Assembly (NCBI GenBank): GCA_039621445.1
Contig: CP154954.1
Location: forward strand, 41,905,572 to 41,969,571
Length of the DNA stretch: 64,000 nucleotides
Reading direction: 5' to 3'
Origin: Euglena gracilis
Lineage: Eukaryota
The notes below the pieces were generated by a model that worked only from the letters and a program-made list of their open reading frames with translations, did not search any database and had not been told where the DNA came from. Positions 794 to 61,100 of this stretch are shown piece after piece (the first letter of the stretch is position 1; each line of letters begins with the position of its first letter). The position numbers and the translations under genes were made by a program.

Positions 794-3700
794 CCCGGCT
801 CCCGTGACGACCAGCTGCGGGCCCTCCTGCGGCGGCGGGCCAGCCCGGACGGGGTGGTCATGCTGACGACGTCCACCATCGGGTACCTGGGGCCAGCCTC
901 CGGCCTGGAAGCGGATGGGCTCTGCAGAATGGAGTCAGCGGAGGATCAACATAAAATTCAGCACACGCCCACATTCACGCATTCATGCGCACACACGCGC
1001 GCACACGCACATACACACACAAACACACACGCGCGCGCACACACACCCATGCACAGACACGTATTACGCACGCACGCACGCACACGGACGCCCATGCGTG
1101 CGCACACACAGATAACCATGATGTGAGTTGTCATCCCTAGATTCAAGGTTGGGAACGATGTCCCTGCAGTGTCCATGTCCACATCACGGCAGAGTTATCA
1201 AATTGGATTTCATTTTCTTATTTGCCCATTTCTGTCACCCTTTCAGCGCCATTAGCCCTATCAGCACTATCACCCTGTGTGTTTAATTCCCTTTTAACCC
1301 CCAGAACAACGGGAAGAGAATCCATGGCACCAGCATCGCCTCCACGTTAGGTTTGATACGACCAATGACGTGTTTATTTTGAGACTTTTGTTGATTTTGT
1401 TGTCCTTCTCCGCCATCTTTTTCTTCGCGACTTGTCCCCCCCAGAAGCGTCTTTGAAAAAGCTTGTGCAGTTGTTGGCTTATGTTGTTCACCACACAGGC
1501 TTCTTTCGGATTTCCTCTGGCTTCAGTGTACAAGCAGGGCAGATGGATGTCACAGCAGATGACGTAAGAATGCGAAAACAATTTTTGGCAAAATTGATTT
1601 TTTCTTGTATTTCCCCTTGTCTGGTGACTTTTTCCCTCGCTTTCATTTTTTTTTCAATAGTTTTTCATTTCACTTGCACAATGTTGCATTTATCCCAGTC
1701 TTTCACAATTCCCTCCAAAATGTTCAATTTCCCACAATTCCCTGCAGTTTTTTGAAATTTCCGAAATTTTTTGGAAGATTTCTATAAGTTCTCCCAATAA
1801 ACGGCCATTTTTTAATACTTTCCTCACATTTTGTGTGTGTTTTTTTTGTCCGCTTCCTTAGCGCGATTATGTGGGTCCAAACATGCCCAAACTCACATCC
1901 AACCAATTGTGCCTGTGTTTTGAGGGCTCACCCACACCCCAAATGGAGCGGCAACAGCCACCAATCAGCCAGAGCGGAAGTTGGGAGGTTGTAAACCCCC
2001 CCTCCCTGATAGAAGCGTGGGTGCGCTGATGGCGGACTGCTACCTCTGGCGGCGGGGGCGGCGCTTCTATTTTGACCCTCCCTGCCCAATTTTTGTTGAT
2101 TTCCTTCAAAAATCCTGTCAAATGGGGGGTGTGCTTGTAGTGGACCGCCGCCTTCGACGACGGGGGGGGGGGGTGCGCTTTTATTTGGACCCTGCGCTTC
2201 TAGCGGCCCCGCATTTTTATTAGGGGGGCGGGTTTACCGGCAGACCTGCACCACAGACAGATGGGTATTTAAACGAATACCTGAGTGCCGTGCCATGTTG
2301 AATGTGATGGGCCGGCATTTTCCTCTCCTGGGGGGTGGGCCGAGAGGGGCAGGGGGTTGTGGCCATTTCGTGTTAAATTTTGCCTGCAACCTGGAGAAGC
2401 TCCAGCTGCCTCACTACGTCATCGCTGCACTGGATGCCCCAGCCGGGCCTTCTCAAAGGAGACGGATGGGACTGGGGACTTTGGGGGGGGTGGGATTTGG
2501 CGTGGGGGGTTTGCCCCCAATTTTTTTCAGCATTGGACTGTTTCTGACCCTCCTGGGGCCGACCAGGCTGTTTTTTTAGTCGCGTGCCGATCCCACCCCG
2601 GGGGGGGGGGGGCCTGCCTGGGCAGGCACCCCAAGGCACTCCGGACCCCCCCTCCCCCCGGGGTTGGTAAAAAACAGCCTGGTGCCGACCCCCCTCTCCT
2701 TATAAATCTGCTGGGTGGGATGTCCCCAGAAGTCCAGCTTCTTCCGTACACAGGAACCCTCCATATACCACAGCAGGACGGAATGGAGGAGCGCGGGTGG
2801 TAAATGTTTTTTTTTGTGAATGCATTCGCACATGTTGTCCATTTTTTCCCGACTACTTTACCCAGTTGGGGCACAGGCTGGACCAAAAAATTTCCAGCGC
2901 AAAGGGCTGAAAATTTTTTTTGATAATTTTTTTCTGGAAAAAAGAATTTTGGAAAAAGGGTCTAAAAAATGGCAAAACAAAAGCCTCAGATTTCCCCAAA
3001 TTTTTGGCTGAAGAATCTAAACCCAGCTGCATTTCGTTTTTTTTTGCCCCTTTTCGGGTGCCAGCCAGGCCCGACTGCAGCTGGCTGGACCTCTCACGCA
3101 CGGGGGGGGGTCCAGCCACCAACTGTTTCCCCCATCCAGCCAGCTGGACCCCTCAGGCTGTCAGGGAGGGGCCCTCCAGGAACTCCCAGGTATTCCCCCC
3201 CACATTCCCCCGCTGGAGCCCCCCCCCCCCCCCACATTGCCCAACGCGCCGGAGCAGCCCCGCCCGCCCGATGTACGAGGCCGGCGCGGCGCTGCCCGCG
3301 CCCGTGGCCCCAGCGCCACGCCGCTCCGGCGCCGCTCCGGCGCGCCCTCGCCTCTGTGCCGCCTGCGCGCGGCCTCGGCGGCTCGCGTCGCCTGCCCCCG
3401 CGCCGGGTCACGGCTTCGTCCCCCCCGCCCTGCCCGGGGTCGGTCCGCCCCCCCCCCCTGGCTCAGGCAATGTCACCTCTGTGCCCCCAATTTGTCATCC
3501 CCGCAATTGCACCCCACCCCCCCTGCCCACCCCCCTTTGTCACCCCCGGGATTGTCCCCCCTCCGTGCTGATTTTTCATAGAAGACGAGTTGTTCTGGTG
3601 TCAGTGTTGATGCCAATTTGTCATAGAAGATGTCTTCTTTCAGTGTGAACTCGGTTGTGCAATACGAATGGAGTGATGGATCATATGCTGCTGGAAGAGT

Positions 3701-6700
3701 GGTTGGTTTAAATGATGATGGCCATATATCACGACCATAGCTGAATTTTTGCTGCGTTCACTTGTGTTTCAGATGGTGTTCTTGGTCATTTGGTTTAAAT
3801 GTGGCTTCCATGAGTGAATTGACGCCCTTGGGCATTTGACGCTTCCGGGCAATTGTCACCCCCCTCTGTGCCGGCCAAATTGTCACCACGGGAAATTGTC
3901 ACACCACCTTTGTCGCGCGACAATTGCCCGGGGAGGGGTGGGTATTATGACCGAAAGCAATGCAGAAAGGTTCCGGTTTCCGGTGAAACGTCAGGCCCAA
4001 AGTGGCACAGGTTCCGGCGCTGTGATTCGTGCGGTGCGCACCTTGGGGTGGAGGAACCGCACCAATGTTCGGCAAAATGGGTGAGGTTCGGTCTGCATTT
4101 TTCTGTGACCCGCCGTGGATCCACGCCCTGTTCGTCATCGACTCGGACGTTGTCTTGGAGAGGGTGGCGTCGCTTTTCTTGCAGGGAACTATGGTGAGCG
4201 CCAAAATTACCATTTTTCTCTTATCCCCCCAAAACACACTGCAAACCATTTGAACTGCAAAGCCTTCATTGTCCTCTTAATGTTGAGATTAATTGACATC
4301 AATAATCCCCCAGGAAGGCCTCACCCCGTTTCTCCACCAATAACACGTAGGCAACGACACCAGGAAGGTGTCGGCTGAATTTTCTGGCGGAGGTACTCCC
4401 CAACTCAATATCTCCATTTTCTAGTTCCAGTGTTGTCCAGTTCTATGTTTTTTTTTGTCCCTGAAACAGGGGTCTTCAAAGTATTTGTATTTTGTTCAGT
4501 GAGCATCCATCTGAAGCAACCTACCTCCCGTCTTTGTCCAATGCACACCGTGTCGTTGACACCCCCACGTCAACACCTGGGCAGGGGATTCGCGGCTGGT
4601 TGGGAGGTCTCCGGAACGGCCTTCCTTGCAGTGTTTTTCCCCACCACTGCACTGCGCCCCCCTTCCCGCGTTCCGCAACCCGCTGCCCCTGGTGAACCCT
4701 TCCCTGCGGGACGTGATGTACGCCCAGCGCAGACCCTGTCTCAGAGGGGGGGACCCCGGCCTCTGGGCTGGTTGTTTTCCAGCAACTCATGATCCACCAT
4801 ATGAGGCAGGGCTCTGCCGCACAAAAAATCATGAAGTATCTCAAATCACCAGAAAAAATGTTATTTTTTTCCTGCAATCGCAACTGCCTCTTATCCGAAT
4901 CAAAATGTCATTTACACACAGCCAGAATTTTTTTTGAAAAAGAGGCCATAACCCCCCCCTAATTGTTGAGCGGGTACTCTTGTAGTGGACGCTCGCTTCG
5001 CCAGAGGGGGGTGCTCTTCTGTTTGGGCCCTGCTCTTGTAGTGGACATCGCACACATTTTCCTACAGCGTTCCAGCGCCAGTCAGTTTCCGGTCCCCTCA
5101 ACCTCCCTTCCTCCACCTAAACCGGCAGCCAAGCGCAAATGGCAGCCGAGGTTGGAGGAATCGTTTAACCTCGGGAAGCTTGCCTTTTTGAGGCAAGTTA
5201 CAAACCTTGCCACAATCGCATGGAATGACTTGCCTTCCTTCTGCTTCCATTGGTTTTCCAGGGGGGTGCTCTTGTAGTGGACGCTCGCTTCGCCAGAGGG
5301 AGAGGGGGGGTGCTCTACTATTTGGACCCTGCTCTTGTAGAGGGCATGCCCTACTATTAGGGGGGGGGTTAGTACGTTGATTTTAGGCCGTTTTCAGCCT
5401 GAGTGCCAGGTTTGGAAGCAGGGGTTGTCCCCCCCCAATGTCTACCCCCCCCCCCGGTTGGTGGACGCCATTTCGAAGGTTTGGTCACATTTTTGCCACA
5501 TTTGCAAAAATTTGGCCAAACCTCCAAAAAGCTGTCCACCTGGTTTAAGATTTCTGCTGGCCAAATTGGCCAAAAATGCCATTTTGGGAACTTTTTGGGC
5601 ATAAAGTTGTCAAAGATTCAAAAATTTTCGGCGAAAACGCCGAGATTTCTTTGAAATTGACCTTTTGAAGAATTTGTTGATAAATTGACCTTTTGGGGGT
5701 TCCCAGGAACTCCCCCAGTCCCTGGACTTTTTTTTTTGGGACCCCGACCGACCCGACCCCCAGTCCGAGGATGGTTGGTACCCTATACTCAACGACCCCC
5801 CCCCGGTCGGGGATGGATGTTACCGGTCTTTTTTTGTTGGACATGGGGGGTTGAAGGTTGGACCCCCCCAGGATGGGTGGGGCTCCCCGCCCCCGCAGTG
5901 GTGGAGGGCAGGGAGGGGCCTTGTGGGTCCGCCGAGGGGCGACAATTGTATGTGATCATGGGCGTGTCCCTCAAAAATGACCAGGGGTTTTCTTAAGGAC
6001 CCCCCGGGGGGTCCTCCAGGCGGGTTGGAAAAAGGTGCTGGCCAGACGTTCATTTAGTGCGCCGCGGAGTTTTTTTTTTTCTGCGCCGCGTGCGCCGCGG
6101 CACCGGAAATTTTGTGACCGCCTGCACCACAGAAGATTTTTTTTTGTGCGCCGCGTGCACGGCGGCAGCGTTTCAGGTGCGCCGCGGCAAGAAAAAAGCA
6201 TGTGCCGCGGGAACGTCATTGGTGTGCCGCGGGTGCGTTGTTGGTGCACCGCGGCAGCGTTTCAGGTGCGCCGCGGGTGCGCCCCGGCAAAAATTCGATT
6301 GTGCTCCACGTGCGCCGCGGAAAAAGTTTTTTTTTTGCGCTGCGGCAAACTTCGTCACGGCGCACTAAATGAAAGCCTGGTGCTGGCTGGACCCCCCACC
6401 CACCCTGGGGTGTGGGGTTTTGGGGGGGGGCGGCGGTCCGGCCAGCTGGCAGCTGGACTTTACCTAAAATTCCAGACAAAAAAGCCCAAATGAGCTAGGT
6501 TGGCATTTTTAGCCAAACCTTGGAGGTGAGAATGAAAAGCCGCCCAAAGGTGCCATTTTTTGCCATTTTTTTGACCCCCTTTTCAAGAATTTTGGCGCTT
6601 TGCGCTGAAATTTTTCCGCGCCGGACCGAACTTTGTTTCAGCAGACCCCCCCCCCCCCAGGGGGTGCTGGCTGGCTGGACCCCGGGGGGAGGGAGGTCCC

Positions 6701-9700
6701 CGACTTAGAAAACCCCTTTATAGTGACCCCAAAAAGTGGGTCACTGAGACGGGGGGGGGGGGCAGGGTGTTTGGGTGTTTGGGTGTTTGGGTGGTGGGGT
6801 GAACCCTGCGTTTTAAAGAAAAAACCCCTGATAGGAACTGACTCGTTTTCAAAGAGTGACCAAATTTTATTTTTTGAAAGTCGAAAGTGACCCCTCCCCC
6901 CTGGGTCATTCGAAGTGCCGAAGGTTTTTTTTTTGGGTCCACACGCAAGGGTACCCGCTTAGAGGCCCCCCCTCGGGTTTTCCTCAAAATAGTAAGCTTC
7001 TAATTGGGGGGGGGGTCAGTTTCCTGGGGGTGCGAGGCAGGCTGAACCCTCGGGGGTTTGGGGGGGATGGGTCTCTGAGTTTCTGGATTGCCTAAATAGG
7101 CAGGCTCGCCCCCCCCCCCCAGTTGTGGGCCAAAATTCGCCCCAAAATGGGGCTTTTCTCAGCTTCCGCCGCCGAAGGCTCCGGAGCGCCTTGACCGCGG
7201 GCCCAGGCAGTTTTGGCGACGTGCACAGGGCGGGGGATCGGACCTGGGGGTAGTGCCTGCCCAGGCGCCCAGGCTCCGGGGCAGACATTCATTCAGTGTG
7301 GTACACCAAGGTTGTCATTTTGTGGTTCACGGTGGACACCAAAAAAATATTTGTGGTTCACATCTGGACACCAAAAAAATTTCCCACCTCCTGCCGACAT
7401 TTGCATCATTATTTTTTTTCTAAACAGCAATGAAGCAATCCTCTTTGAACATGTTTGCCCAAATGAAAGCGAAGCAAAATCAAAGGAAATGTCTGGCCTT
7501 GCCCGAAATATGGCCGATTTACGGCCCAAAACAGTGCGGCCAACTGGCGACTTAGCCGTTTTTCGGCCCTGTTTAGGGTAAAAAAAATCAAATTTTCTAA
7601 AATTTCTCGAAAATGGTGGGGAGTCAAAGGAAACGTCCGGCGACCTGAGTTGGCCCTTTGAAGCTCTGTCTAAGCGTATTTTGATTTCCCTGCAAATCTC
7701 TGCCCAGCCAATTTTGGCCATTTTGTACATTTTTGGTCTGTTTTGATTTAGCCGTTTTAGGCCATTTTTGGGTTAAAAGGGGCGAAAAAAATCGGGAAAA
7801 AATCGAAAAAAGAATTTGCCCGAAATGATGTTTCCCGGACCCAGAAGAACTGTTTTTGAGCCGAAAATAAGCGTTTTCCCACCCGCCCCCCCCCCCAGAA
7901 TGGCCAAGATCAGAAGATGGGACCCCTCCCCAATAATGATATTGCCCCCCCCAGTTGAACCCCTCCCAATTATTTTATTCTCACAAAATAATTTACACTT
8001 CAGATGCCCAGATATATCTCCCCTGCCATTTTTCTGCGAAAGAAATCAGGTGACGTGGATACTTTAGCTCCGGAACAGGCTGTTTTTTTTAGTCGGGTGC
8101 CGACCCCGCCACAGGGGGGGGTGCCTGCCTGGGCAGGCACTCCAAGGCACTCCCGATCCGAATCCCCCCAGTAGGGCACACGGCCAAAAGTGCCCTAGCA
8201 CAGACCCTGGAGCCAAAGGTGCCGGGGAGCCAAAAATGGCCTGTTTTCAAAGGAATGTGCCTGGTCGCAGGCCGAAATCCGACCCCGGGGGGGGGTAGTG
8301 CCTGCCTGGGCAGGCACCCCAAGGCGCTCCGGACCCCCCCCTCCCCCCGGAGGTTGGTAAATACCAGCCTGCTCCGGAAATGGCATGTTTTGACAAATTG
8401 ATTGGTTTGCTTGGAATGCTGATAGATAGATTGGAATGCTGAAATACCACCGATGTGCCAAAGATGGAGGGAGGGCGATCTACCTTGTTGCATGAGGATG
8501 CCGGTACACAAAACCTGGAGGATCCCGAGGAATCTGATTTGTGATTGTTTGTAATTGGAGTTACCTTGAGTCAAATCCCATTGGATGACCAACAAAAAAT
8601 TCTCACCGTCTGTACTGAAAAAAAGTTGGAAAGTGCCCAAGGGATCAAACGTCGTTTCCCGTTCATTCCGGCCGAATGGCTGCGTTTCGGGGCACGGCCT
8701 CCGCCCAGGGAAGGGTCGAAGGGGCCTGGCCCAGTCCGACGTGCCGTACAGCCACCTGCTGCCCCTCGAGCAGACCACCGCTGAGGTGGCGCCGCCCTCG
8801 TTTCAGGCTCGCCCTATCCGTTGGCCAGCTCGGTGCAACCCACTATTTGGTCACAGCTTTGCCATTACTTTCAGCCCCTCCCCGGCAGCCAGGGACAGCG
8901 CCTCGCGCCGAGATGACCGGGCCCCGCCCCGCCGATACGTTCAACGCGGGGCTGTTCTTCGTGCCTGCGTCGCCGGCCAGCATCGCGGCGTTCGAGTGGA
9001 TGATCGCCGCGCAAGGGCCCTTCCTGCCCCTCAGGGGACTGCCCCTTCTTGGCTGTCCTGTCTCTAAATCAGCTGTGTGACGGTGCCCCAACCTGAACGT
9101 GTGCTGCGTGCCCCAGGGTCCTGTTTAACCAGCGAGCAGGTTTTTTCAGCCTGGTTCCCTTCCTGGTTGCCTGCTCCGAGAGCACACAAACGGTACCAGC
9201 CCTTTTGCAGGTGCCAAAATTGGCATGTGATGAGCAAAGGACCGGTCGAAAGTCGACTACCCAGCTGAAGTTCTGGGTCTCAAATCAAATCAAACAAAAC
9301 CAAACCAAATCTTTACATTAATTTCTAACTATTTGCGGCTCTTTCTCTTCTTCTGTTTTCTTTGCCTGGGTCGCTCTGCGGAGTCAGCAAAGAGGTAGCG
9401 CCCAATTGACGGGCCTCATGTCGCACGTGACAGGCGCATGCCAGCACATTTGCGCGCATGCCTGAACCCACAACTTGCACTTCTTCCTTCACCGGCACCG
9501 TTGAAAGACCCCTGGGCAAACAGTTTTCCCGATGAAGTTCAGCTGATGTTGTTGATTTAGAAACGCCCTGGCCTTGGGGTCTGCACCAAGCACCTATAGC
9601 TAATATGGCCTAAAATGGCCTAAAATGGCCTAAATCGCCTAAAATGGGAAAAATTCTGTTCAAGCATATTTTGAAGGCAATTAAACAATTTAAACAACAT

Positions 9701-12700
9701 CCTTGCATTTCCAAATTATGATGAACAAAAAAGTGTTATCATCTCGCCGCCTTTCAGGTGGCAATCTCAAAGTTCGACTCATTTTGTTGGCCCAATCAAT
9801 AATAAAAAAAGTGTTATCATCTCGCTGCCCTTTGGGGTGCAAACTCAAAATTGACTTATTTTGTGACTTCTAAACAAATCAAATGTCATTGAAGAAGAAA
9901 TGGTGTGATTGTCATTACGTTGAAATTAGACGGTATGAGTTGTTTCTTCTGATGAACCAAACTGAACAAGGTTGTTTCCACGTTGATTTGCTTTTGCAAA
10001 CAAAGTGAAGCGTCCAGATTAGTGAAGTGTGGTATTACACTTTGAACACAATACAAGGTTTGAGGATTTCCTCAGTTTCCATGTGCTTATTTTTTTCTGG
10101 GTTTCAACAGCTTTGTCCAAAAGTTTCAGCAAGTTTGTCCAAATGGTGTCAATAACCCTGTCCACTCATTGTATTACTAAATAAGAGAAGGTTTGCACAC
10201 GTCATGATGCAGTTTTCGGGACAATAATGTCGCAAAATTATGATTTTCAGAACCCCCACCTATACCTAAAATGGGTGGCCTAAAATGGCCTAAAATGGTC
10301 TTAAATGGCCGAAAATGGCCTAAAATGGCCGAAAATGGCCGAAAATGGGGGAATTTTTGGGCTTGACTATAGGCTATAGATAGGTGCTTGGTCTGCACCA
10401 TCTTGCCCAGGGTCGGAGTGAGATTCTGTGTTAACCCTCCACCAACCCTCTTGCGCGGCAAGGCTCAGGGGGCTGATCTGCCAAAACAAGAACCAAAATT
10501 GAAGGGAGAAAAATGTGGCAGAAGCACAACCGCCAGGGTCGTCGGCCCGACGATGTTATTCATCGCCTCGCACGCCCAGTGCCTTTTCTTTTGCCACCCC
10601 TCCCCCTTTCCTGTGTTGGCCGACCCCTTTCGCTGCGAGGCCCATCCATCTCCAGTACCATGTTCCGAAAATACGAAAACTGGTATCATTTTAGAATCAA
10701 AATCAAATTTTGCTTCCATGTACGTTTTTGGGGGTTGGGTCGTTGGAAAAAAAAGTGGGCGGGCCGGCCCCGGGAAGGGAAGGGGCCGTGCCGGGGAGGT
10801 GGATGCCGGCCGGGTCACCACTGATGACCAGCCGCTCTACAACCGCGCCTTCTGCGCCGCCCCCCGCCGGCCACCGTCCCCAGCCCCCCCCCCCCCCCCA
10901 GGAGGGGGCTTGTTAATAATGGGGTTTTGGGGGTAGAGAACCTACCGACCTGCTGGTTCCGGGGGCTGGTCGCACTTTTTGGCGCGCCTGTTTTCTTGGA
11001 TTTGACGCTTCCCCGATAATCATGCCCGCTGCCCCGATATATACCGAAAAATTGCCAAAATTTTGCTATTCTGGGGTGTTGACCAGCAGTGCTTCTGACA
11101 ATAATGGGGTTTTGGGGGTGAGGAAACCAGCTGACCTGGTCCCGGGGGGGCTGGTCGCACACCCCCCCCCCCATTTCCTGGCCTGGCCTGGGTTGGTGGG
11201 TGGGTGGGTGGGTGGGTGCGGGGGCCGCCCCACGGCCGGCGCAACGCGACGACGTGCCACTTCACCGCCCCGGCGTCCACGGCGTCGCTGGAGGTCCGGT
11301 TCTGGCCGCAGATGATGGCGGCGAACGGCGCGGTGGACGGCCGGGGGTCCGCGGTGCCGCGGGCCCCATTTTGGTCCGTCCGGCCGGGCACCCCCCCCCC
11401 CTCCCCGGCAGGGTGTCGCCAGGGCATGTCCTCACTGGCCTGGAAGGTACCCCCCCCCTTGTCTAAGCACCAACCCCCCCCCGGTTCTTACCCATCTTTT
11501 TAAAGGTCATCGTTCCGGGAGGTTTATTTTGTGTGCATTTTTAAGGGAAATTTCTCAAAAAATTCGAAATTTCTGCAACTTCTGAGACCTGATTTGGTGA
11601 GGTATTGTTGATTTCTGCCTCCAAATTTGTGTAAGTTCAACAGCGGACCTCCAAAATAAGGGGAATTTTTTCTTTTCGGCGCGAAGCGAAGCCGGATTTT
11701 TTTTTTGCAGTTAAATTTTTGCTCCTTGTCTAAGCACCACCCCCTGGTTCTTACCCATATTTTGGCAAAATAAGCCCCCCGGTTCTTACCCATCTTTTCC
11801 GGTGCTTAGACAAGGGGGGGGGAGGTATGTCAGCATGCAAATCCACATGCACAAAAAGTGCACACCGACAACGAAGAGAGGGGAGGGGGAGGGAGGGAGG
11901 GAGGCACACAGCCGAGTTTATCTCTGGGGGAACTATAACACCGAAACGTGGCACCGCCCCCCCCCCCCCGCCCCCAATGTGTTGGCCTCTGGTTTGTGTT
12001 ATTATAAGCCAGTTTGCCAACTGTGATGCCATGAGGGCTGAAGCCAGCTTCGCGGCCGGGGGAGCAGGAACTGCCAAGCGGAGTTGCGCGTCGATGCCTT
12101 AACAGATCAACTGCCCCTTGGACACAGACCTTGCCCCTGTCCAATGGCTGCCCTGTGGCCAGTGATCACCCCTGATCAACGGACCGGAGGGGCCCCTGAC
12201 CCCCTGTCGCGAGAGAGGGGGCGGAGGCTGGGGTGTTTGTGGGGACCCCCCGCGGCCCAGCGCGCGCCGCCGGGGCCATCCAGCGGCGGGGCTTCTTCTC
12301 CTTTGCCTACCGGGGGCTGCGGCCGGTGCTGCCGGGGCAGATGTCGCTGCACAACAACTGCATCAAGGCCGGGCTTGCATTTCGGAAGACCCCCCCCCCC
12401 GGTCTTCACCGGGTGTCCGCGGCAGAACCTTCCCGGGGGCCTGGGAATGGGTCCAGCCAATAAAAAAGTCTGGTGTTTTTTTTTAAAAAAAACAATGGGC
12501 AAAATGGTAGATCATTGGTCGTTGTAGGTTTTTTGTGGCAAAAACTGAAAATATGTGCAGGGCTCCAGAAATCAGGGGAAATGGTCAGAACGATCCGAAA
12601 ATGAGTTCAAGGCCTGGTTTTTTTTGTTGATCCTTTTGCAACTCCCCCTCTTGCCCCCCCCCCCCGAGGTCCCTTGGCAGGTGGCCTCCTGTGGGTCTAA

Positions 12701-13134
12701 AATGAAAGCCTGCTCAAGAGCCTGGCTAACAAGCTGACCCGCCAGAAGAAGGCTGGGTTATGTACATGGCTTCATTTAACACCTGTGTGACCCCTCCCCC
12801 CCAGAGGGGGCGAGTGGGTGGGTTTTCGGTTCCTGGGTGGGTTGGGGCTGCTGGACCCCCTGGGGAGTGTGCCATGTCTGGCCCGGCCAAAGGCCGGGCT
12901 TGGGAAAATAAACTTCTTGCTTCTTTCTTTCAAGGGGTTTCGACTGATTTAGGGTGGGTTTGGGGTGGGTGGGTGGGTGGGTGGGTGGGTGGACCCCCGG
13001 GGGTTATGTGTGGGTGTGTTTTTGAAAAGAATGGTGGAAATGTTTGGGACCCAGGAGAAATGGCCTCCACTGGGTGTCACTAAGTGAATCCATGGTTCTG
13101 GTGGCTAGACGAGGAGGGTATCTGTCTTGTGTAA
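794..13134 (+). CDS. Nucleotide-diphospho-sugar transferase (GT77-like, GT-A fold), multi-exon, 5'-partial
   Basis: Hand-spliced exons 794-890, 2365-2436, ~4119-4156, 4670-4726, 8734-8785, 8889-9008, 10796-10865, 11232-~11345, ~12266-12366, 12718-12761, 13100-13134 give family motifs in order: VVMLTTSTIGYLDFVLNF..HYVIAALD, IDSDVVLFRNPLP (DxD), YAQSD, FNAGLFFV, DDQPLYN, MAANG, HNNCIKSLANKLTRQKKAGLWWLDEEGICLV*. Exons between 2437 and 4118 (e.g. MYEAGAAL near 3271) and upstream of 794 are unresolved. Confidence 0.85.
891..2364 (+). other. Nonconventional intron (GG...CC)
   Basis: +4 CAGCCTCC pairs with GGGGGTTG ending at -6; removal gives CTG G|AT TTC = GYLDFVLN. Confidence 0.8.
2564..2681. mobile_element. 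hAT-type MITE
   Basis: TIR CAGGCTGTTTTTT/AAAAAACAGCCTG; TSD GGGCCGAC/GTGCCGAC; same family as 8076-8371. Confidence 0.82.
3445..3945. mobile_element. MITE family with AATTGACGCCC/AATTGTCACCC subterminal repeats, diverged copy
   Basis: Collinear with 26153-26648 and 62465-62973 (shared core TTTCAGATGGTGTTCTTGGTCATTT); ends approximate. Confidence 0.78.
4157..4669 (+). other. Nonconventional intron (GG...GC)
   Basis: +4 GAGGGTGGCG pairs 9/10 with CGCCCCCCTT ending at -6; removal gives DSDVVL|FRNP. Confidence 0.75.
4949..5371. mobile_element. TA-flanked MITE
   Basis: TAACCCCCCCCTAA...TTAGGGGGGGGGTTA ends; internal repeats of CTCTTGTAGTGGAC; related copy at about 1992-2237. Confidence 0.65.
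6043..6379. mobile_element. hAT-type MITE with GTGCGCCGCGG internal repeats, nested in another repeat
   Basis: TIR CAGACGTTCATTTAGTGCG/CGCACTAAATGAAAGCCTG; perfect TSD GTGCTGGC (6035-6042, 6380-6387). Confidence 0.9.
8076..8371. mobile_element. hAT-type MITE
   Basis: TIR CAGGCTG.../...CAGCCTG; perfect TSD CTCCGGAA (8068-8075, 8372-8379). Confidence 0.88.
9009..10795 (+). other. Nonconventional intron (GC...GG)
   Basis: CAAGGGCCCTTCC pairs 11/13 with GGAAGGGGCCGTG at +4/-6; removal gives WMIA|EVDAG in frame. Confidence 0.75.
11448..11827. mobile_element. TA-flanked (Tc1/mariner-type) MITE
   Basis: TA-C-run-TTGTCTAAGCACC ... GGTGCTTAGACAA-G-run-AGG-TA inverted ends. Confidence 0.8.
12367..12717 (+). 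other. Nonconventional intron (GG...AA)
   Basis: CGGGCTTGCATTT pairs 12/13 with AAATGAAAGCCTG at +4/-6; removal gives HNNCIKSLANK. Confidence 0.8.
12762..13099 (+). other. Nonconventional intron (GT...CT) made of a whole MITE copy (12765-13094)
   Basis: CATGGCTTCATTTA/TAAGTGAATCCATG stem at +4/-6; removal restores KAGLWW; body is homologous to 23469-23774. Confidence 0.85.
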
Positions 13135-14490
13135 TGGCTCCTCTCCGCACTTCAACAAAATTCCCCTCCCCTTCCCTCTTTCCCTGCCTTTGTGTGTCTG
13201 AATGGAGGGTGCCGTATAACTCTCCAGATTGCGGCTGGCCACCATCCTCGCAAAAACTCCTGTTTTGACTCTGTGCTGTATGGTTTTTACGATTTTTTTT
13301 TCAGGACTGATCTCTGCTGTGAACTAAATTCACAAATGGATCAGCAATGATAGGGACATTTTCTGCATTGTGGTGATTTAAGGGGAATCGAACCATGTGA
13401 GGGTTATTATTTGGGCAACCTTTTCAACCTCAATATATGACCCTCACAGCAATTTACCATTTCCTCTGGACCCAGTTTCCCCCACAATTCTGGGCTTTGG
13501 CTGCTTCGCTGCTTCGTACCACAAAAACTGATCACGGGAGTCCTGGTCAGTGAACGGGAGGGGGACCCCTAAATTTACTCCTAACGGCCTAAATCCTGAC
13601 CCTAACCCAAACCCTGTTCCTGTTCCTGACCTTTTCCCTATTAAGAACAGGCGAAGAAGTGTCCCTGGTTGACTGAAAGGGTGCGGACCCCTTCACCCAT
13701 CAAGCCGCATCGACTCCCCAGGAAGTAACCCCCCCAAATAACACCCCCCCCCCCCCGGTGTGTTATTTGGGCACCCGAACTGGGCCCCCAGGGGGGTGTG
13801 TGTGTTATTTTTACATGGAAAACCAAAGGAAAACAGGGGGGGGGTGTTATTTGGGCGCTCGAAATCGGCCCCCGAGGGGGGGTGTGTTATTTGGGGGGGG
13901 GTGTTATTAGGGGGGTGTGTTATTTGGGAGGGGGGTTTATTTGGAGACCTCACCCTCCGCCTCACAGGGCAAAACTTTTCCTTCGCACTGCACTGTGAAT
14001 TTTATTTTTGGTCCAATCACAGAACGGTGTAGGGCTGTTTTGGCTGGGGTTCTCACCCTAAGAAAATAATGGAAATTTGGCAAATGTTCTTCCTTTCTTC
14101 CTCACTCTGAAAATGGCGGCCATTCTGAATGAAAATGGCGGCCCCACATAGTTGTTGAAACAGCTTTGTAGGCTGTCAGATATTGTCTGTAGCTTTTTTG
14201 TGCCAGGTTTGTATGTATGTTTTCTCAATCCACAACTGGCAGCCTTGAGTGCGGAAACTCTTCCAGAACGTGCAAATTTATTTATTCTGTGGCATTTTTT
14301 TTGCAGTTTTTGCAGTCCAGGCTTTTGCCTGCCGATGTGCCTCTTTCCTTCACCCCCTTTCAACCCACTTTTGGGGGGTTTGGGGGGTTCACCCCCCCCC
14401 CCGCCCAAAAACCTCTGGCTCGAAGGCACACACATTGCGGAACCCCCACACCACCATGCTTGCGCTTCGGGGAACGGCCGGTGCCTCATC

Positions 14491-14506
14491 CGCCTCTTCT
14501 TTCCAG
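14491..14506 (+). promoter_or_regulatory. Putative spliced-leader trans-splice acceptor
   Basis: Pyrimidine tract plus CAG ending 9 nt before the start ATG; SL trans-splicing is established in euglenozoans. Confidence 0.55.
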
Positions 14507-14515
14507 GGCCACGCC

Positions 14516-24992
<10,477 letters not shown>

Positions 24993-25764
24993 CAGCCCGG
25001 CACAATACACACCTCGGTGAGGGGCGGCGGGTGTGTGCCTGTGGCACCCCCGTACCCCACACACATATGGGTGGCACCCGCACTCCACCATCGCTGTTCT
25101 TTCCTGCCACTGCGTTGCTGTCTGTGTCCACTGGTGCTGGGGCATTTCTCATTCCGCAACTTTTGTGTCTCTTAACATTCACGCCTGCATCCAACCCCCC
25201 ACCGGGGGGTCCAGCTAGCATCTTTTTTCCCCACCCCCTGACAAGTCCTTATCGTATCATTAACCCCCCACTGACTAACCCCCTGGGGTCAGTACGATCT
25301 GGTTTGCTTGGGCCGAAGCGGGGGTGGGTGGTTAGTAGTTGGGGGGGTTAGTTGGTCAAATCCGACCCCCCAAAATGCCCAAAACACCCCTCTGCAATGC
25401 ATTTTTTTTTGGCAGAATTCGAAAATGGCATTTTTCATGATGATTCTTGGGAACACAAAAATTGACAAAAATCAGTTGGTGTCTTGCAACCAAATAAATC
25501 GTCCCCGGCGTCTTTTTCATTTTTCTTCACCGGGGGGGGGGTTAGTCAGTCGTCCTTTGGTTTGTTGGTCACAGGGGGGGCTTGTAGGTGGGGGGGGGGT
25601 GGGTGGGAAAAGTGGGGGGAGAGGTGAGGTTTAAACCGGGGGCCGGTGCGGACAGTTTCCCAGGTGCGACCCTGACAGGTTCTCTGGTATCACAGTTTCC
25701 CAGGAGGGTGAGGGTAGGATTGCAATCATCATTTGCACCCATTCCCAAGTCCTCCCGACCGGGG

Positions 25765-26037
25765 CAGGCTTCTTTTTAAGTCAGCAGACCCCCCACCCCC
25801 GGGGGGAGGGGGGGTGGGTGGGTGGGTCCCGGCCGGACCCCCCCCCCCGGGGGGGGGTCCCGCGCCGAAGGCGCTGGGTATACCTTTTCGGCGCGAAGAG
25901 CCGAATTTTTTTGAAAATTGCCTTTAGCGGCCCCCATTTTTTGGGGGGCACCCCCCCCCGGGGGGGTCCCGCGCCACCCTGGGTGGGTGGGGGGGACCCC
26001 CCCTCCCCCCCCCCCGGGGGGCTTAAAAAGAAGCCTG
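25765..26037. mobile_element. hAT-type MITE, intergenic
   Basis: Perfect 16-bp TIR CAGGCTTCTTTTTAAG/CTTAAAAAGAAGCCTG; perfect TSD GACCGGGG (25757-25764, 26038-26045). Confidence 0.92.
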
Positions 26038-26152
26038 GACCGGGGGTTTTCTCCTGGGGGGAGGGTCCGGCGGGCCGCTTCTTTTAAACTCAGACCCCCC
26101 CCAGTGGGTGGGTTTGGGGCCGGACCGACCCGGGGGTGGGTCCCGGCTGGGT

Positions 26153-26648
26153 CCCCCCCCCCCCCCGGGCAATTGACGCCCCCGGGTAATTGACGCCCCT
26201 GGGCAATTGACGCCCCCGGGCAATTGTCACCCCTGGCTGTGCCGGCCAATTTGTCACCCCGGGAAATTGTCACCCCCCTCCGTGCTGCCCAATTTGTCAC
26301 CCCCCACAGAAGACGTTTGTGAACTTTCTTTTCGCCGGCACGACTCAATTGATCTTCTATTTCGCTACAACGTGCTGAGAAATGTCACATACCAAATGCT
26401 CTGCACAATATCACAACCATAGCTGCATTTTTGCATGTTCACTGGTGTTTCAGATGGTGTTCTTGGTCATTTGGATTAAATGTGGTCTACATGGGTAGGC
26501 AATTGACGCCCCCGGGCAATTGACGCCCCCGGGCAATTGTCACCCCCCTCTGTGCCGGCCAAATTGTCACCCTGGGAAATTGTCACCCCCCTCCGTGCTG
26601 CCCGATTTGTCGCGCGACAATTGCCCGGGGGGGGGGGGGCGGTTATGG
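26153..26648. mobile_element. MITE family with 17-bp AATTGACGCCCCCGGGC subterminal repeats
   Basis: CCCGGGCAATTG/CAATTGCCCGGG inverted ends; collinear with copies at ~3445 and ~62465. Confidence 0.85.
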
Positions 26649-27055
26649 GTTTTGGCGCAATTTTTTTTGGGAAATACCCTCAGACGGCCCGATTTTAATT
26701 AAAGATCGCATTTGGACCCACTTTGAATCCATGAGCGCAGAACAAAATTCGAGCTTCGGCCAAGACGAAATAGGCTATGTGTATACAATTTTGCATTGAT
26801 TGTATCAAGGTGTGTAGTTTTGGATGCCAGACTTCGAGGGAAAAGGGAAATAATCTGGGGCAGAGCAGGAAGATATGCGTAAGATGTCCTTTCTGTCCAA
26901 AAACTGCGGACGGGCCATTTTTTTCCAAGTGGGCCCAACCATATTATGGTTGCTTCTGACATTCACACCAATGTCAATAATAATATTGGTTTGGGTCCAT
27001 TGCTCTTCTAGATACATGCAGTGTAAACCAAAAAGTCCAGTTTTGGGGGGTGAAC

Positions 27056-27169
<114 letters not shown>

Positions 27170-28095
27170 GCACACATCTTAATATACATGTATATTTAAC
27201 ACATAATACACATTTGAATACATGCACACGTACACATTTGAAAATTCCAAAAGCACAAATCTCTGTATTACCCATAAAAATCAATTTTTTGGGTTTTTTT
27301 TTACTAATGGACCCGTCACATTACTCCTGTCCCAATGTTCGCACACCAATGCTATTGTGGGTTTTTTCCGAGTTAGCATGCAGCACTGTCCTCTCCACCT
27401 GGGAAGGGGGGGCATCGATCGGACACAAGAGACCCAACATTTGGATTGGCGGAAGCAAAGACTAACACATGAAATATGCATTATCCAGTGCTTTCTTTTC
27501 TTGGTTCATGTCCTCATGATTTCCAGAAGTGGGATGAAATTGCCACAGCAACAAGGCTTTTGTACTATTGGAGGGCCCCTTTGCGGGCCTCCAGTCATTC
27601 AGGGCAATTGTCACACCCCATTCAGGGGACAGGAGCCAAACAAAGTAAGTTTTTTTTTGCCAGAGTGTTTGCCTTGGCCGCTTGTCTGCAGAGTTTTGTC
27701 GCTTTCTCTCGTGGCCGCCCCTTGCCTTCGGCGCCAGCGACTCCCTGGTGGATGTGCCGGGCCCCCGGGCAGGCCTTTGCTGAAGGTCTTTTTCCCCAAG
27801 GGAAGCATTTCACTGCCTTGCCGGGCCAGGGCCAGGGACGTTTGTGATGGGCTGGATGTGGCCAGGAAGCCCCCCCCCCCCCCGCTGGGCTGCAAACGGG
27901 TCGACTTCGATGGTTTGGCGCCTTTTCTTGGCCACCGCTTTTCATGGCGGGTTGGGGTTCTTGGTACCGCCCCCCCCCCCAGATTTCAGGGTTGGGACAG
28001 CACGGCCCAGTTCCCGCCAGCCCGAAAGCCGACCGCCCCAGAGATGGCCCCCGGGGCCAGCCCGTGCAGCAAAAGCCGGCGGGCGGCCGCACGGG

Positions 28096-56111
<28,016 letters not shown>

Positions 56112-56332
56112 CCCCACCCCTCGCGACCCGCCCCCGACCTGGGCTGTCCCCCCTGTCAATGTCGACCCCGCCTCCTGACCCTGTGTGAATAGAGTGTGGA
56201 TTATCGCACTGGGGCTTTGCATTGATGCCAAGTGCCCCCCAGGCACGCATGCCGAAACCAATGCCCAAACTAGCCCCCCAGAATTGAAGGACCATAACAC
56301 AGGCAAGGGAGTGCCAACAGCCAGGCCGGGAC

Positions 56333-57306
56333 CAGACGTTTAGAGTGTGCACCAAAAAACTTTTCTGTGTATCACATGTTCACCAAGAGGAATTTTGTGT
56401 TCACCTGTGTTCACAAATTTTTATGTTCGCATGTGTTCACCAAGTATTTTTGTGTTCACCAAAAAAGGTGTTGAGAAGAATATCAAAGTTGTTTTTGTCC
56501 CTCGGAAAGGGGATAGGCATTTGTTCGGGCGTGAATGGAAAAATGAGATTTGTTGCATTTTGACCCGGGTCTTGGAAAGAGGAACAACTGTGGCGGCATT
56601 GCAAGAGCGTTTTTTGCTTGCTTGAGCCCAATACTTTGGGGTTGGCAAATGGCACGCCGTCCCGGAATGTGAATAAGAATGTTTGCGACGTTTCGAAGCA
56701 ACACTCCAGGCAGAAGATTTTCAAACATTCGCTGACACATGCTAAGAAAAGCCTTAAAAAAAGCTCAACCCCCGGCGTCATCGTACAAGTGGGACCTATC
56801 CCCTAATGTTGGTATTTTTTCCCCTGATTCTGGCATTCCACTGGGATATTTTTGGACGTTTCCGGTGCGCGGAGCGTGCCCAGGTGTAGCCTGTCACAGG
56901 GGGTGTAGCCTGTCACAGGGATTTGGGGTTGGGTTTGGGATTTGGTGCAGGTCAGGAATTTTAGGCCAAATAAGGCCGAATTCTCAAAAATTGGACCTAA
57001 AATTGGGCCTTGATTTTCGGGTTTATTCAGGTTGAAAGTGAAGGCGGCCGACATCATAACCCCTGTGAGTAACCCCAATTTTTCCTCACTCCGCATGCAG
57101 GAAACCCTGGACAGGTTCTGACAAGTGGAATCGATCACGGTCCACCCCCTGTCACACATTTGGATCCCGCAGGGGATCAGTTTGAGGCTGCCTTATACTT
57201 TTTCTTTTTTTCTTGTTCACCCAAATTTCTCAGTGTGTTCACCTGTGTTCACCAAAAAAAAAATGTGTTCACCAGCGTCTTTGTGAACACACTAAGTGGA
57301 TGTCTG
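56333..57306. mobile_element. Older hAT-type element with TGTTCACC subterminal repeats, intergenic
   Basis: CAGACGTT/GATGTCTG ends; TSD GCCGGGAC/GCTGGAAC (6/8). Confidence 0.65.
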
Positions 57307-58130: not shown

Positions 58131-61100
58131 AAGCGAGCGTGCATGCGTGCATGTGTGCGCACATGTGTGCGATGTGTACTCCTAATTCCACCAGCCCTGT
58201 GGCCGAAGGGATCACGTCTTGGAGAGGGAATGCACACGGCTTGGGCAACCGTCAAGTGCATCATTTGTGTCACCCCATGCGTCATTTCAGTCCCATCGCC
58301 TGCAGGACCATCGCCTCTTCGCCAGCCACAACTGCCGCGGCCACTACGACAAGGTGGTGCCGGAGTGCCCGCTGTGCGGCCAGTTGGTCCCCACGGCCAG
58401 GGGCGGATAGCCAACCTTTGGTCTCACACACAAACATGTCCAGCGCGAATGAGGGGGGCAGCCGAAGGCTCCACTCGCAGACCTTGGAATGGGAAGGCCC
58501 CCCTGTATGTGCAACTGGCAACCGTTTAGAATGGACGCAGCTCACACATTTTAAGATATTCCACCATGCATTTGCTGCCAAAGCAGTGGCACCACCACTG
58601 GCAACTCCCCCCCTCCCCACACACATGTTGACGAACCCCCCACGCCGGCCAGAGCGTCTCTCCAGAACCCCCTCTGTGTTGTCTGCCTTGTCACCTCCCA
58701 TTTTCGCTGTCAAAGAGGAGTTCCAAAACAATAGAAACACTCAAAAATGAGTTTTTTTCCCCTCTTTGGGAGGTGGACGGGTTTTGTTTATCATGACCCA
58801 ACCTGTTGACCCGGGTGGTAACAGCATCCCCTTTGACATCCCATTGATTGACAAAAATCGACCCCCCAGGCAATTTTTAACGCTGGGTCATTTCCACTTC
58901 ATCCCTGAAATGAGAAGCCCAACGACACACAAGAACATTGCCCTATTTTCTCCCCTAGTTGTTTGCAAATGCATGCCCCGCGGCAAACGGGCCTTATCTT
59001 GAAAAGAAGCTTTGACCCCACCCCAGCACCCCAGGGAGGTCCAGCCCGCCAGCAGCCTTTTTCCAGCCAGCAGCCTTTTTTCCAGCCCTGCACCTCCCTC
59101 CCCCCCCACCCATCAGCGAGTTTTATTTATTTCCAGCCACCCTTTGGGCCGCTGGACGACAACAGATTTTTGGCATTTGTGGGTGCAACAACAATCGGCC
59201 GAAAAACGGGTCAAAAATGGGCGAAAATGGGTCGGAAAACGGCTGTCCGGGGCCCCGGGGCAAATTTTGGATAAAAAAAACGTTGTTTTTTTGCATTTGC
59301 CAAAATTGGCATTTTTTTGACATTTTTGCAGTTTCTATTTTTGGTACCCGTTTCGACACCCCCAGTCAGGCCCTGTTCCAGCCCTGGGGCGTGGCCATGG
59401 GGGGTCAACCAGCAGCCTTTTTCCAGCCAGCCCAAGTTTTTCATCCTCTGAGCTAGACCCCCCCGGGGGGGGGTCGTTGAAAAACACCCTGGTGGCAAGT
59501 CTGTTGTTGTTGTTTTGGGGGCAGATTTTTCAAAACGACCATTGGGCCCGGAGCGCTGTGCAAGCCGAAGCTGAAGGATCCCAGGGTCCACTGGCTGGCA
59601 GTCTCAAGCTGGAAAGTCACTGGCCACTTCACCCTGGAGATGGGGGGGGGTCTGGTCCCCCCCGACAGGAAAAAAAACAGTATCTTCCGTCGCTTTGCGC
59701 CAATGTGGAGACGAGGTTATGGTGTATATTTCTTTTGTATTTTCATCCCAAATAGCTTCCCAACGTTCCAAAAATGGACATCTCTGGCATGTTTTGGGTG
59801 TAACAAAAGGAAATTCTGGTGCTTCGTGCCCCCAAGAACCCTGGGTCATGGGGGAGGAATGTTGGCCAGAATTGTCAGTTTGCATGGTGTTTTATTCGCT
59901 CCTTCCTGCGGCTCACAACCAAGATCCAAACCACGCCGTGTCCGTCCACATGGAAAAGGTACGACGGCTTGCCAGTGTGCGCTTGCCCAGTAGAGCCATG
60001 GTGGAGGGCCCAGGACCCCCGTGAGCCCAATTGTGATGGTGAGTGCGTGCCCGTCTCGCCAAACTGTTTTTCCAGTTTATGTGCAGCGCCACCGTGCATG
60101 CCCCCCCCCCCACCTAGGGCTGCCCGCGGGAAGGGAAGACCGCGTCCCCGCAGCCCCAGCGCCTCAATTTCTGCGCCTTCCGGGACTGCACCGCCAACGA
60201 GCACGTCCTCATCCGCTGCAAAGCATGCGGCAACTCCTTCTGCGTCCCACACCGCCTGCAGGTCAGCTGCCTCTCCCACACCTCCCCCCCCCCAGACAGG
60301 GAGGTCCATAGAGGACAAGTTTTTTTTAAAACTCAGGACTGTCTCTTAAGGACCGCCCTTGGCCAAAGGGCCGGCCAAGTTGGCAGTCGAACGGGGTCAA
60401 AAATGAAAAGTGAGAAACATTTTTCATACGTCCAGATATAGTTCTGAGCCTCGTACACAGTACCTCCCCCCCCTTGTGACAAATGCATTGTTGGTATGAA
60501 ATGATTTTAAGACAATTTTACCCCCCACCTATAGGAAAAAATGCTCGAAAATGGCCGAAAATGGCCGAAAATGGCCGAAAATGGCCGAAAATGGCCGAAA
60601 ATGGCCGAAAATGGCCGAAAATTGCAAAAATCGGGGGGTCAACTATAGGTGCTTGCCCTTGTCCAACGACCGGCCTTGTCCAACGACCCCCCCGGTCAGT
60701 AGCGATCTTTTTCCAGGTGATATTTTTTCCAGACGTTTGTGTTCTGTCAGAGTATAGACCACACAATTGCAAAGTTTTTTTTGTCTAGTTTCCTGCAAAT
60801 CAGCAACTTTTGGCCTTTTTTTGGCCCCTTTTTTTGGCCAGTTTGGACCACTTTTGGCCACTTTTGCCCATTTTGGGCTGCATTTGGCAATTCAGACCAC
60901 TTTGTTTGGATGCATTTTTGCTTCCAAACATTTTTGCTTTATACCAATTTTCGGCTGCTTTTGGCTATTTTTGCACATTTGTGGCCATTTTAGCCACTTC
61001 TATTGCTTTTATCCACTTCTTGCCCCTTTTTGGCCACTTTTGGCCATTTTGTGGTCACTTGCACAGATTCAGTGACTGCAATTTTGTAATCGATGGGCGC

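Follow-up and report, generated by a model that had tools for sequence, protein, structure and literature searches.

A 64,000-nt stretch of Euglena gracilis DNA (the window) contains several families of short elements that begin with CAG, end with CTG, carry terminal inverted repeats (TIRs) and are flanked by 8-bp target-site duplications (TSDs). We infer that these are non-autonomous DNA transposons (MITEs), for which the hAT superfamily is the best match. As hAT-like MITEs with an 8-bp TSD, they would be ready-made nonconventional introns, and are likely to be raw material for the introns of Euglena. The structure of the elements, the exact 8-bp TSD, the differing TSDs of related copies, the terminal pairing and the compliance with the published splicing code were computed here, while the code itself, its sufficiency and the circular excision products are taken from the literature.

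Results

Detection of CAG..CTG elements

A preliminary description of the window had listed seven elements starting with CAG and ending with CTG, and both ends are found at these coordinates in 7/7 cases. The scores it gave for the 8-bp flanks are reproduced: 8/8 for 6043-6379, 8076-8371, 14765-14875 and 25765-26037, 7/8 for 2564-2681 and 19733-20199, and 6/8 for 56333-57306. In all seven, the inverted termini extend past CAG/CTG. A blind scan of the 64-kb window (CAG..CTG, 40-3000 bp, TSD of at least 7/8, ungapped TIR of at least 10/14) returns eight matches, consisting of six of the seven plus two further elements at 61864-61989 (7/8) and 62056-63118 (8/8). The element at 56333-57306 is rejected by this filter on account of its 6/8 TSD and gapped TIR.

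When the same scan is applied to 100 dinucleotide-preserving shuffles, the mean is 0.3 matches and the maximum 2. Shifting the flank comparison outward by 1, 2, 3 and 4 nt leaves 0, 2, 1 and 0 matches, respectively, versus eight in register, and exact adjacent repeats are five in number at 8 bp and absent at 6, 7, 9 and 10 bp. Of 858 CAG..CTG pairs with a TIR of at least 10/14, the flanks agree at 8/8 in five and at 7/8 in three. Gapped TIR scores are bimodal among the 147 CAG..CTG pairs with flanks of at least 7/8: the eight elements score 9-18, and 134 of the other 139 pairs score 6 or less, with two more reaching 9, both longer than 3.6 kb. A relaxed scan gives 65 matches, mostly combining 6/8 flanks with 11/16 TIRs and mostly attributable to chance.

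Structure of individual elements

The elements have the small size and TIRs of MITEs (111-1063 bp, with 7-18 contiguous terminal pairs), the exception being 6043-6379 (337 bp), where terminal pairing is broken at positions 4 and 6. This element has the highest gapped TIR score of the window (18), and the pair C(+4):G(-6) is formed in its minimum free energy (MFE) fold. The TSD is likewise of fixed length, 8 bp, and is perfect in five elements, 7/8 in three and 6/8 in one; five of the eight robust elements thus have perfect TSDs. The element at 6043-6379 (TSD GTGCTGGC, 8/8) defines an end type, CAGRC..CATTTAGTG, that is shared by 14765-14875 (111 bp; TSD CTGGGAGC, 8/8; TIR score 17). A related end type is seen in 56333-57306, a MITE-like element of 974 bp that appears to be older, with a 6/8 TSD, indels in the TIR and 10 contiguous terminal pairs.

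The remaining first-listed elements outside the one multicopy family are 19733-20199 (467 bp; CAGGCTT.. ends, TSD 7/8, TIR score 10) and 25765-26037 (273 bp; TSD 8/8). The ends of the latter are identical over the first 16 nt (16/16), with 18 contiguous terminal pairs, and its fold has a z of -14 relative to 30 mononucleotide shuffles. Of the two elements added by the blind scan, 61864-61989 (126 bp) has CAGGGCGG.. ends, a 7/8 TSD and a TIR score of 14, and 62056-63118 (1063 bp; TSD CTGCTGGG, 8/8) holds a nested copy (62475-62973) of a different repeat family. A solo right end at 37558-37663 shares homology, up to ..GTGCCTG, with that of 62056-63118; no left end that would partner it was found. 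A further probable CAG..CTG MITE of 142 bp lies at 22837-22978, with a perfect 13-nt TIR and flanks of 4/8, and adjoins an (ATAC)n microsatellite. Finally, a larger CTG..CAG element of 598 bp at 14566-15163 (TIR 11/16, flanks 8/8), which encloses 14765-14875, is uncertain, as it comes from the relaxed scan only, in which we estimate that about 0.3 chance 8/8 matches are expected.

Families and coding content

The view that most interiors are unrelated holds, since only one family has two recognizable full copies: family A, consisting of 2564-2681 (118 bp; TSD 2556-2563 / 2682-2689, 7/8; 13 contiguous terminal pairs) and 8076-8371 (296 bp, one unit of which is duplicated internally; TSD CTCCGGAA, 8/8), which are 86-88% identical. 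These two copies are flanked by different 8-mers, which indicates that the direct repeats originate in the target site and do not travel with the element. The element at 25765-26037 is distantly similar to the pair (74% over 76 nt). The others are single-copy within the 64 kb, apart from the second right end of the 62056 family at 37663. We thus agree that several families share one end design, being MITE-like with common CAG/CTG ends and an 8-bp TSD. Three or more further TIR repeat families or elements of the window lack CAG ends, and the CAG..CTG design is therefore not universal within it.

The elements had also been called non-coding, and none of the ORFs running through them reaches a Pfam curated cut-off; the sole match listed for these ORFs is KH_6 (E 0.0018), at 19 bits against a cut-off of 27. 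Pfam searches with 522 ORF queries from the window, six ORFs being left out, give no transposase domain. A metagenome scan with a 26-nt core of family A gives 0 matches, Rfam finds 0 families in the window, and no related empty sites for the element flanks are present within the window.

Superfamily assignment

The 8-bp TSD is that of hAT transposons, and the elements share a hAT-like terminal design, CAGG/CAGA ... CCTG/TCTG, with a CAGA start in three of them. The hAT terminal consensus is 5'-YARNG. Positions 1-4 fit it in all elements (CAGG or CAGA). A G follows at position 5 only in 61864-61989 and 22837-22978; the others have C there. The hAT target consensus, nTnnnnAn, is weakly palindromic. 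In the TSDs observed here, the second base (t2) is a pyrimidine in 8-9/10 and the seventh (t7) a purine in 10/10, which form a palindromic pair; T at t2 (5/10) and A at t7 (4/10) are not individually significant. Neither a hAT transposase nor an autonomous partner with the same termini was found among the window ORFs queried, and we found no report of hAT elements in euglenids in the literature searched.

Fit to the nonconventional-intron code

The code for nonconventional introns of Euglena, N3-CDG...CH'G-N5-6|R, was defined by knock-ins, and five fully artificial introns with the code features alone are reported to be spliced after knock-in (Nomura et al. 2025, PMC12501133). Judged by sequence, an element together with its TSD conforms to N3-CAG...CTG-N5|R on the + strand in 10/10 cases, in line with the preliminary claim that such elements satisfy the nonconventional-intron consensus. 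That they would do so in either orientation is borne out for CAG and CTG, but the purine at the downstream exon start hangs on the target: it is present in 10/10 on the + strand, and on the - strand in 5/10 (N5) or 9/10 (N5 or N6). N3 and N5 of the published code add up to the 8 nt that were proposed to leave with the element (3+5 = 8), and loss of the element together with these 8 nt restores the target sequence. The description of these elements as candidate intron donors is hence upheld with respect to transposon structure and code compliance, and only in part with respect to the purine rule in both orientations.

In MFE folds of N3+element+N5, C(+4):G(-6) is paired in 8/10, and the other two are in a shifted register; such end pairing is expected because of the TIRs. 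The natural introns used in the knock-ins begin with CAGG.. or CAGGC.. and have TIRs of ~12 nt (Dataset S9). In earlier work, 51/55 introns are reported to have a purine at the intron 5' end, and in 55/55 the downstream exon starts with one (PMC4770533), positions that would be the two copies of TSD base t6 under the TSD model. In our elements, t6 is a purine in 10/10, while a pyrimidine stands at t3, its mirror position, in only 5/10. The t6 bias is modest (P about 0.01-0.04 by our own calculation, after 16 column tests with n = 10).

Gene context

The only gene mapped in the window is an alpha-kinase gene on the + strand (48745..52644, i.e., 48.7-52.7 kb), which encloses none of the elements. 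Its exon matches lie at ~48745-48825, 50149-50231 and 52510-52644, with Pfam PF02816 E values of 1.3e-4, 6.8e-7 and 5.3e-10. For its two introns, the GT/GC-AG and CDG/CHG combinations that keep the reading frame number in the dozens, and typing by homology is ambiguous. A search for homologous longer proteins with an alpha-kinase exon ORF gave no match, the 65 ORFs of at least 200 aa gave a low-complexity ZIP match only, and ORF ranking based on GC3 was uninformative.

Discussion

A proposed transposon route to nonconventional introns

We propose that the elements insert by cut-and-paste through an 8-bp staggered cut, presumably with a transposase encoded elsewhere. In RNA, the inverted termini would pair from CAG:CUG onward, and the nonconventional splicing pathway of Euglena would cut 3 nt 5' of CAG and 5 nt 3' of CUG. 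As 3+5 nt is also the length of the duplication (8 bp), these cuts would take out the element and one duplicate and give back the uninterrupted target. Such elements would then be the source population of nonconventional introns. Published observations that bear on this include a strain-specific, recently gained gapC intron of E. agilis, described as having 8-nt junction repeats (Milanowski et al. 2016, PMC4770533), the release of nonconventional introns as circles (PMC11282704), and the report that 69.1% of nonconventional introns in E. agilis are "slidable", i.e., situated between direct repeats (PMC12501133). In E. gracilis, 72,771/413,446 introns are non-slidable (Dataset S6).

Alternative explanations

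That inverted and direct repeats coincide by chance, in DNA that is rich in repeats and in GC, has a negligible probability. The relaxed scan does yield its many weak matches, but the excess of eight elements over the 0.3 of the shuffles, the near-zero register and length controls and the bimodal TIR scores effectively refute chance for the eight robust elements; 14566-15163 is possibly such a coincidence. It is highly improbable that the direct repeats are by-products of double-strand-break repair, as has been proposed for the gapC intron (PMC4770533), or arose by RNA-mediated reinsertion of excised circular introns, in line with the published circular release. Repair microhomologies vary in length, whereas the repeat is 8 bp in all eight robust elements and never 6, 7, 9 or 10, and long perfect TIRs are a transposase substrate. 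With a reinserted circle, its 8 nt would come along, but the flanks of the related copies at 2564 and 8076 are unrelated. Derivation from Merlin transposons is also improbable, even though two Merlin families, each making 8-bp TSDs, are described from E. gracilis itself (PMC8101967). According to the same source, all Merlin families, new ones included, start with 5'-GG, which is not the case for any element here, as CAG follows directly after the TSD; the Merlin marker DDE_Tnp_IS1595 gave no match among the ORF queries of the window.

It is conceivable, if on balance doubtful, that some or all copies are instead ordinary slidable nonconventional introns, or lie in UTRs or spacers of + strand transcripts. 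They would then be products and not donors, a reading that overlaps and is compatible with the one we prefer. The published intron density of E. gracilis is ~10 per gene, most of the introns being slidable (Dataset S6), and the exon matches that pass the curated Pfam cut-off, five in all, lie on the + strand (Alpha_kinase x3, zf-AN1, WWE). The asymmetry between t6 and t3 is also better explained by selection on one strand than by a target preference that is symmetric, but the statistical strength of the t6 bias is modest, as noted above. Against this reading, no coding exon was found beside any element (Pfam, ORFs), virtual excision of element + 8 nt gives spanning ORFs no longer than at random sites, and the elements are spaced 2-6 kb apart in DNA without Pfam signal. 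We retain hAT-like MITEs as the probable explanation.

Implications

Where the nonconventional introns of euglenids come from has been asked since the 1990s. A 2014 paper noted that transposable elements had not yet been identified in euglenids (Milanowski et al., PMC3935182), a 2018 paper raises the question of whether the transposon theory holds, and a 2025 paper states that the origins "remain unclear" (PMC12501133). In the literature searched, published work on nonconventional introns names no discrete transposon families, TSD length or superfamily, and no paper linking hAT or an 8-bp TSD to them was found. A MITE origin is thus an old hypothesis, and, as far as the literature was searched, the new parts are the concrete families with 8-bp TSDs and the link through 3+5 = 8. 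With discrete MITE families and intact 8-bp TSDs, the transposon hypothesis yields specific predictions for which suitable data already exist: in slidable introns, the most common length of the junction repeat should be 8 nt, the families of introns and of MITEs should be the same, TSD bases 5 and 6 should flank the splice junction, and the genome should hold a hAT-type transposase with matching termini.

A more tentative step, to which we give somewhat less than even chances, is that the N3/N5 spacer rule mirrors, at the level of RNA, an 8-bp hAT-type TSD and that the hundreds of thousands of nonconventional introns are MITE insertions with these ends. One insertion geometry would account for the slidable repeats and for both purines, the one at the intron 5' end and the one that begins the downstream exon, and would also explain the strict spacer lengths in the knock-in experiments. 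The perfect TSDs would imply that some families are still mobile and that intron gain is ongoing, and transposons would have a second, non-spliceosomal way of making introns across whole genomes. More boldly, the splicing nuclease might recognize the terminal hairpin that the transposase recognizes, or even be a descendant of the transposase.

Comparison with known systems

The elements described here mostly have C at the fifth terminal base, where the hAT consensus has G. In other respects they resemble hAT MITEs, of which Mar of Drosophila is an example (PMC3517528). The shared features are 8-bp TSDs, short TIRs starting with CAG, no coding capacity, lengths of 0.1-1 kb and several families with one terminal design. 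With the Merlin transposons reported from E. gracilis they have in common the 8-bp TSD, the TIRs and the lineage, whereas Merlin TIRs start with GG and Merlin elements encode DDE_Tnp_IS1595 (PMC8101967), neither of which is seen here.

Close parallels are also seen with the nonconventional introns of euglenids. These have CAG at +4..+6 and CTG at -8..-6, as do our elements if 3 + 5 nt of TSD are counted as intron. In both, the ends pair, G/C is frequent at +7/-9, a purine stands at the downstream exon start, and lengths range from tens to thousands of nucleotides. Direct repeats at the intron junctions, 8 nt in one recent gain, correspond to the 8-bp flanks. Nonconventional introns differ in that they interrupt exons and are removed from RNA, for which our elements are candidates. 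Maize Ds is removed from transcripts imprecisely, by the spliceosome acting at cryptic sites. Giroux et al. reportedly described in 1994 how Ds, a hAT element, is spliced out, and it thus offers a case of a hAT-type element acting as an intron within an exon, whereas removal of the elements here would be exact. Introners of Micromonas, dinoflagellates and other organisms (reviewed in PMC11282704; see also PMC12130899) are non-autonomous DNA transposons that give rise to a removable intron on insertion, part of its splice boundary coming from the TSD, as we propose for our elements. Introners are, however, removed by the spliceosome and have one GT/AG-type site and 3-8-nt TSDs, whereas for the Euglena elements a non-spliceosomal, structure-guided pathway would act, and the whole length of the TSD would enter the cut geometry (3+5).

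CAG...CTG elements with 8-bp target-site duplications

The seven elements placed in the window by the preliminary description have the coordinates that it gave, and each starts with CAG and ends with CTG. Their 8-base flanks, read as target-site duplications (TSDs), agree at all eight positions, as claimed, for 6043-6379, 8076-8371, 14765-14875 and 25765-26037, and the matches of 7/8 for 2564-2681 and 19733-20199 and of 6/8 for 56333-57306 were likewise recovered. [quoted passage not shown]

A blind scan for CAG..CTG pairs (40-3000 bp, flanks matching at ≥7/8 positions, ungapped terminal inverted repeat (TIR) of ≥10/14) returned eight elements, comprising six of these seven and two that the preliminary description did not contain, 61864-61989 and 62056-63118. 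The same criteria gave a mean of 0.3 and a maximum of 2 matches in 100 dinucleotide-preserving shuffles, and when the flanks were shifted outward by 1-4 nt in the real sequence, 0, 2, 1 and 0 matches were found. Exact adjacent repeats numbered five at a length of 8 bp and zero at each of 6, 7, 9 and 10 bp. Among the 147 CAG..CTG pairs with flanks of ≥7/8, the eight elements have gapped TIR scores of 9-18, and 134 of the other 139 score ≤6. A chance origin is excluded for these eight robust elements.

The remaining element, 56333-57306, is weaker and probably an older copy (TSD 6/8, indels in the TIR). Two further candidates are also weaker: 22837-22978 has a perfect 13-nt TIR with flanks of only 4/8 and adjoins a microsatellite, while 14566-15163 (CTG..CAG, flanks 8/8) emerged solely from a scan with relaxed criteria and high noise, and could reflect chance. 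Long microsatellites lie at 21954-22829, 24002-24494, 27059-27176, 31915-32085 and 45721-46021, with (ATAG)n, (GCTC)n, (ATAC)n of 479 bp and (CA)n/(GT)n of up to ~300 bp among their units; they resemble the tandem repeats described for E. gracilis introns (PMC11170887).

The proposal that several families share one end design is correct, as ends are shared and interiors are mostly unrelated. The end type CAGRC..TTAGTG is common to 6043-6379, 14765-14875 and 56333-57306, whose interiors are unrelated. One family consists of 2564-2681 and 8076-8371 (86-88% identity), the latter distinguished from its relative by an internal duplication, with 25765-26037 as a distant relative; no second copy of the remaining elements was found within the 64 kb. 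The segment 37558-37663 repeats the right end of 62056-63118, with homology ending exactly at ..CTG, and 62056-63118 itself hosts a nested copy of a different repeat (62475-62973). At least three further TIR repeats have ends other than CAG..CTG: 16056-16469 with 44647-45060 (90% identical), 26156-26647 with 62475-62973 (87% identical), and 44281-44646. The first two families are built of short units of a C-run plus an 11-12-nt word and have C-run/G-run inverted ends with no CAG. The third is 366 bp long, with a 30-nt, 97% complementary TIR (TACAGTCCGG..), and directly adjoins one copy of a C-run repeat.

Correspondence to the nonconventional-intron code

From knock-in experiments, Nomura et al. 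(2025) report the signature N3-CDG...CH'G-N5-6|R, in which the 5' spacer of 3 nt tolerates no change in length, the 3' spacer is 5-6 nt and the exon preferentially starts with a purine; splicing was also seen for five entirely artificial introns containing only the signature features and a 12-nt stem (PMC12501133). If an insertion is written t1-t8 | CAG...CTG | t1-t8, with t1-t8 as the TSD bases, this code would cut after t5 of the left and t5 of the right copy, and the cuts would take out the element plus 8 nt, restoring t1-t8. The geometry of the elements matches the Euglena code exactly, and the copies may be spliced. On the + strand, the code is satisfied by 10/10 candidates (the eight robust elements, 56333-57306 and 22837-22978), and on the - strand by 5/10 with N5 and 9/10 with N5 or N6. 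In the folded RNA, C(+4):G(-6) is closed in 8/10, and CAGG ends occur in 7-8/10, as counted from the end sequences.

[quoted passage not shown] The model fits the direct repeats reported to flank 69.1% of E. agilis nonconventional introns (PMC12501133) and the eight-nucleotide junction repeats of the strain-specific, recently gained gapC intron (PMC4770533). It also fits the purines reported for 51/55 introns at their 5' end and for 55/55 at the first base of the following exon, the frequent G/C at +7/-9 (PMC4770533), and the CAGG.. or CAGGC.. starts of the natural knock-in introns, which have TIRs of ~12 nt (PMC12501133).

Strand bias and possible transcript context

Across the ten candidate TSDs (e.g., 6035-6042, 8068-8075 and 25757-25764), t6 and t7 are each a purine in 10/10, whereas t3, the mirror position of t6, is a pyrimidine in only 5/10. 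With n = 10, this asymmetry between t6 and t3 suggests that selection for the splicing purine acts on one strand, as opposed to a target preference that is symmetric. All five Pfam exon matches above the curated cut-off (WWE, three Alpha_kinase and zf-AN1; 20904-20999, 48745-52644 and 60172-60260) are on the + strand. Together with the t6 bias, they hint that the elements are part of + strand transcripts and that selection favors their splicing, which at n = 10 is only suggestive. On the + strand, C exceeds G in most 2-kb bins and the cumulative GC skew drops to -1.69; this skew and the Pfam matches may reflect one-directional transcription of the window.

The only gene mapped in the window encodes an alpha-kinase, with + strand exons near 48745-48825, 50149-50231 and 52510-52644, and none of the elements lies inside it. 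Homology typing of both its introns is ambiguous, as the number of compatible in-frame combinations is too large. The first intron is bracketed by a perfect direct repeat of 8 bp (CGACCCCG, at 48842-48849 and 50152-50159), and joining at this repeat preserves the frame and the order of the Pfam profile; it is only suggestive, because an 8-mer is shared by 3.4% of pairs of random 40-nt windows. In this intron, a different pairing that conforms to N3-CAG..CTG-N5|G, also in frame, places the last exon base at 48833 and the start of the next exon at 50153. For the second intron, one option is GT...C-rich tract...CAG, in agreement with the C-rich polypyrimidine tracts reported in E. gracilis (PMC11170887). 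This intron also contains two degenerate tandem-repeat arrays, 50857-51193 and 51429-51876, with units of 18 nt and about 20/51 nt.

Origin and superfamily of the elements

Published papers consider a "MITE-like" origin of nonconventional introns, or double-strand-break repair, with neither TSD length nor superfamily named, and the 2025 paper describes the origin as unclear (PMC12501133). Direct repeats arising from repair or an RNA-mediated process fit poorly here, as the repeat length is fixed at 8 bp and related copies carry different flanks. A live alternative is that the copies are already ordinary slidable introns, that is, nonconventional introns flanked by direct repeats, rather than free donors; if right, this would not weaken the transposon model. 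The MITE hypothesis is itself old, and a single 8-nt junction repeat is already in print. Relative to the articles searched, the novelty lies in the specific families, in a TSD that is constant at 8 bp and in reading 3 + 5 as 8.

That the elements are hAT-like MITEs of several families is a sound observation, the MITE label being given because of their short size, TIRs, lack of coding capacity and a duplication of constant length whose sequence is not the same in related copies. An 8-bp TSD and CAG-initial termini are hallmarks of the hAT superfamily, and membership in it is moderately favored. The TSD columns of the ten candidates display a weak palindromic preference (t2 pyrimidine in 8-9/10, t7 purine in 10/10). 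None of 522 queries with ORFs from the window (six ORFs left out) revealed a transposase domain; an autonomous partner, if any, must lie elsewhere. The documented alternative in E. gracilis is Merlin, which also makes 8-bp TSDs; however, derivation from Merlin fails on the termini, as all reported Merlin TIRs start with GG (PMC8101967), whereas these elements start with CAG.
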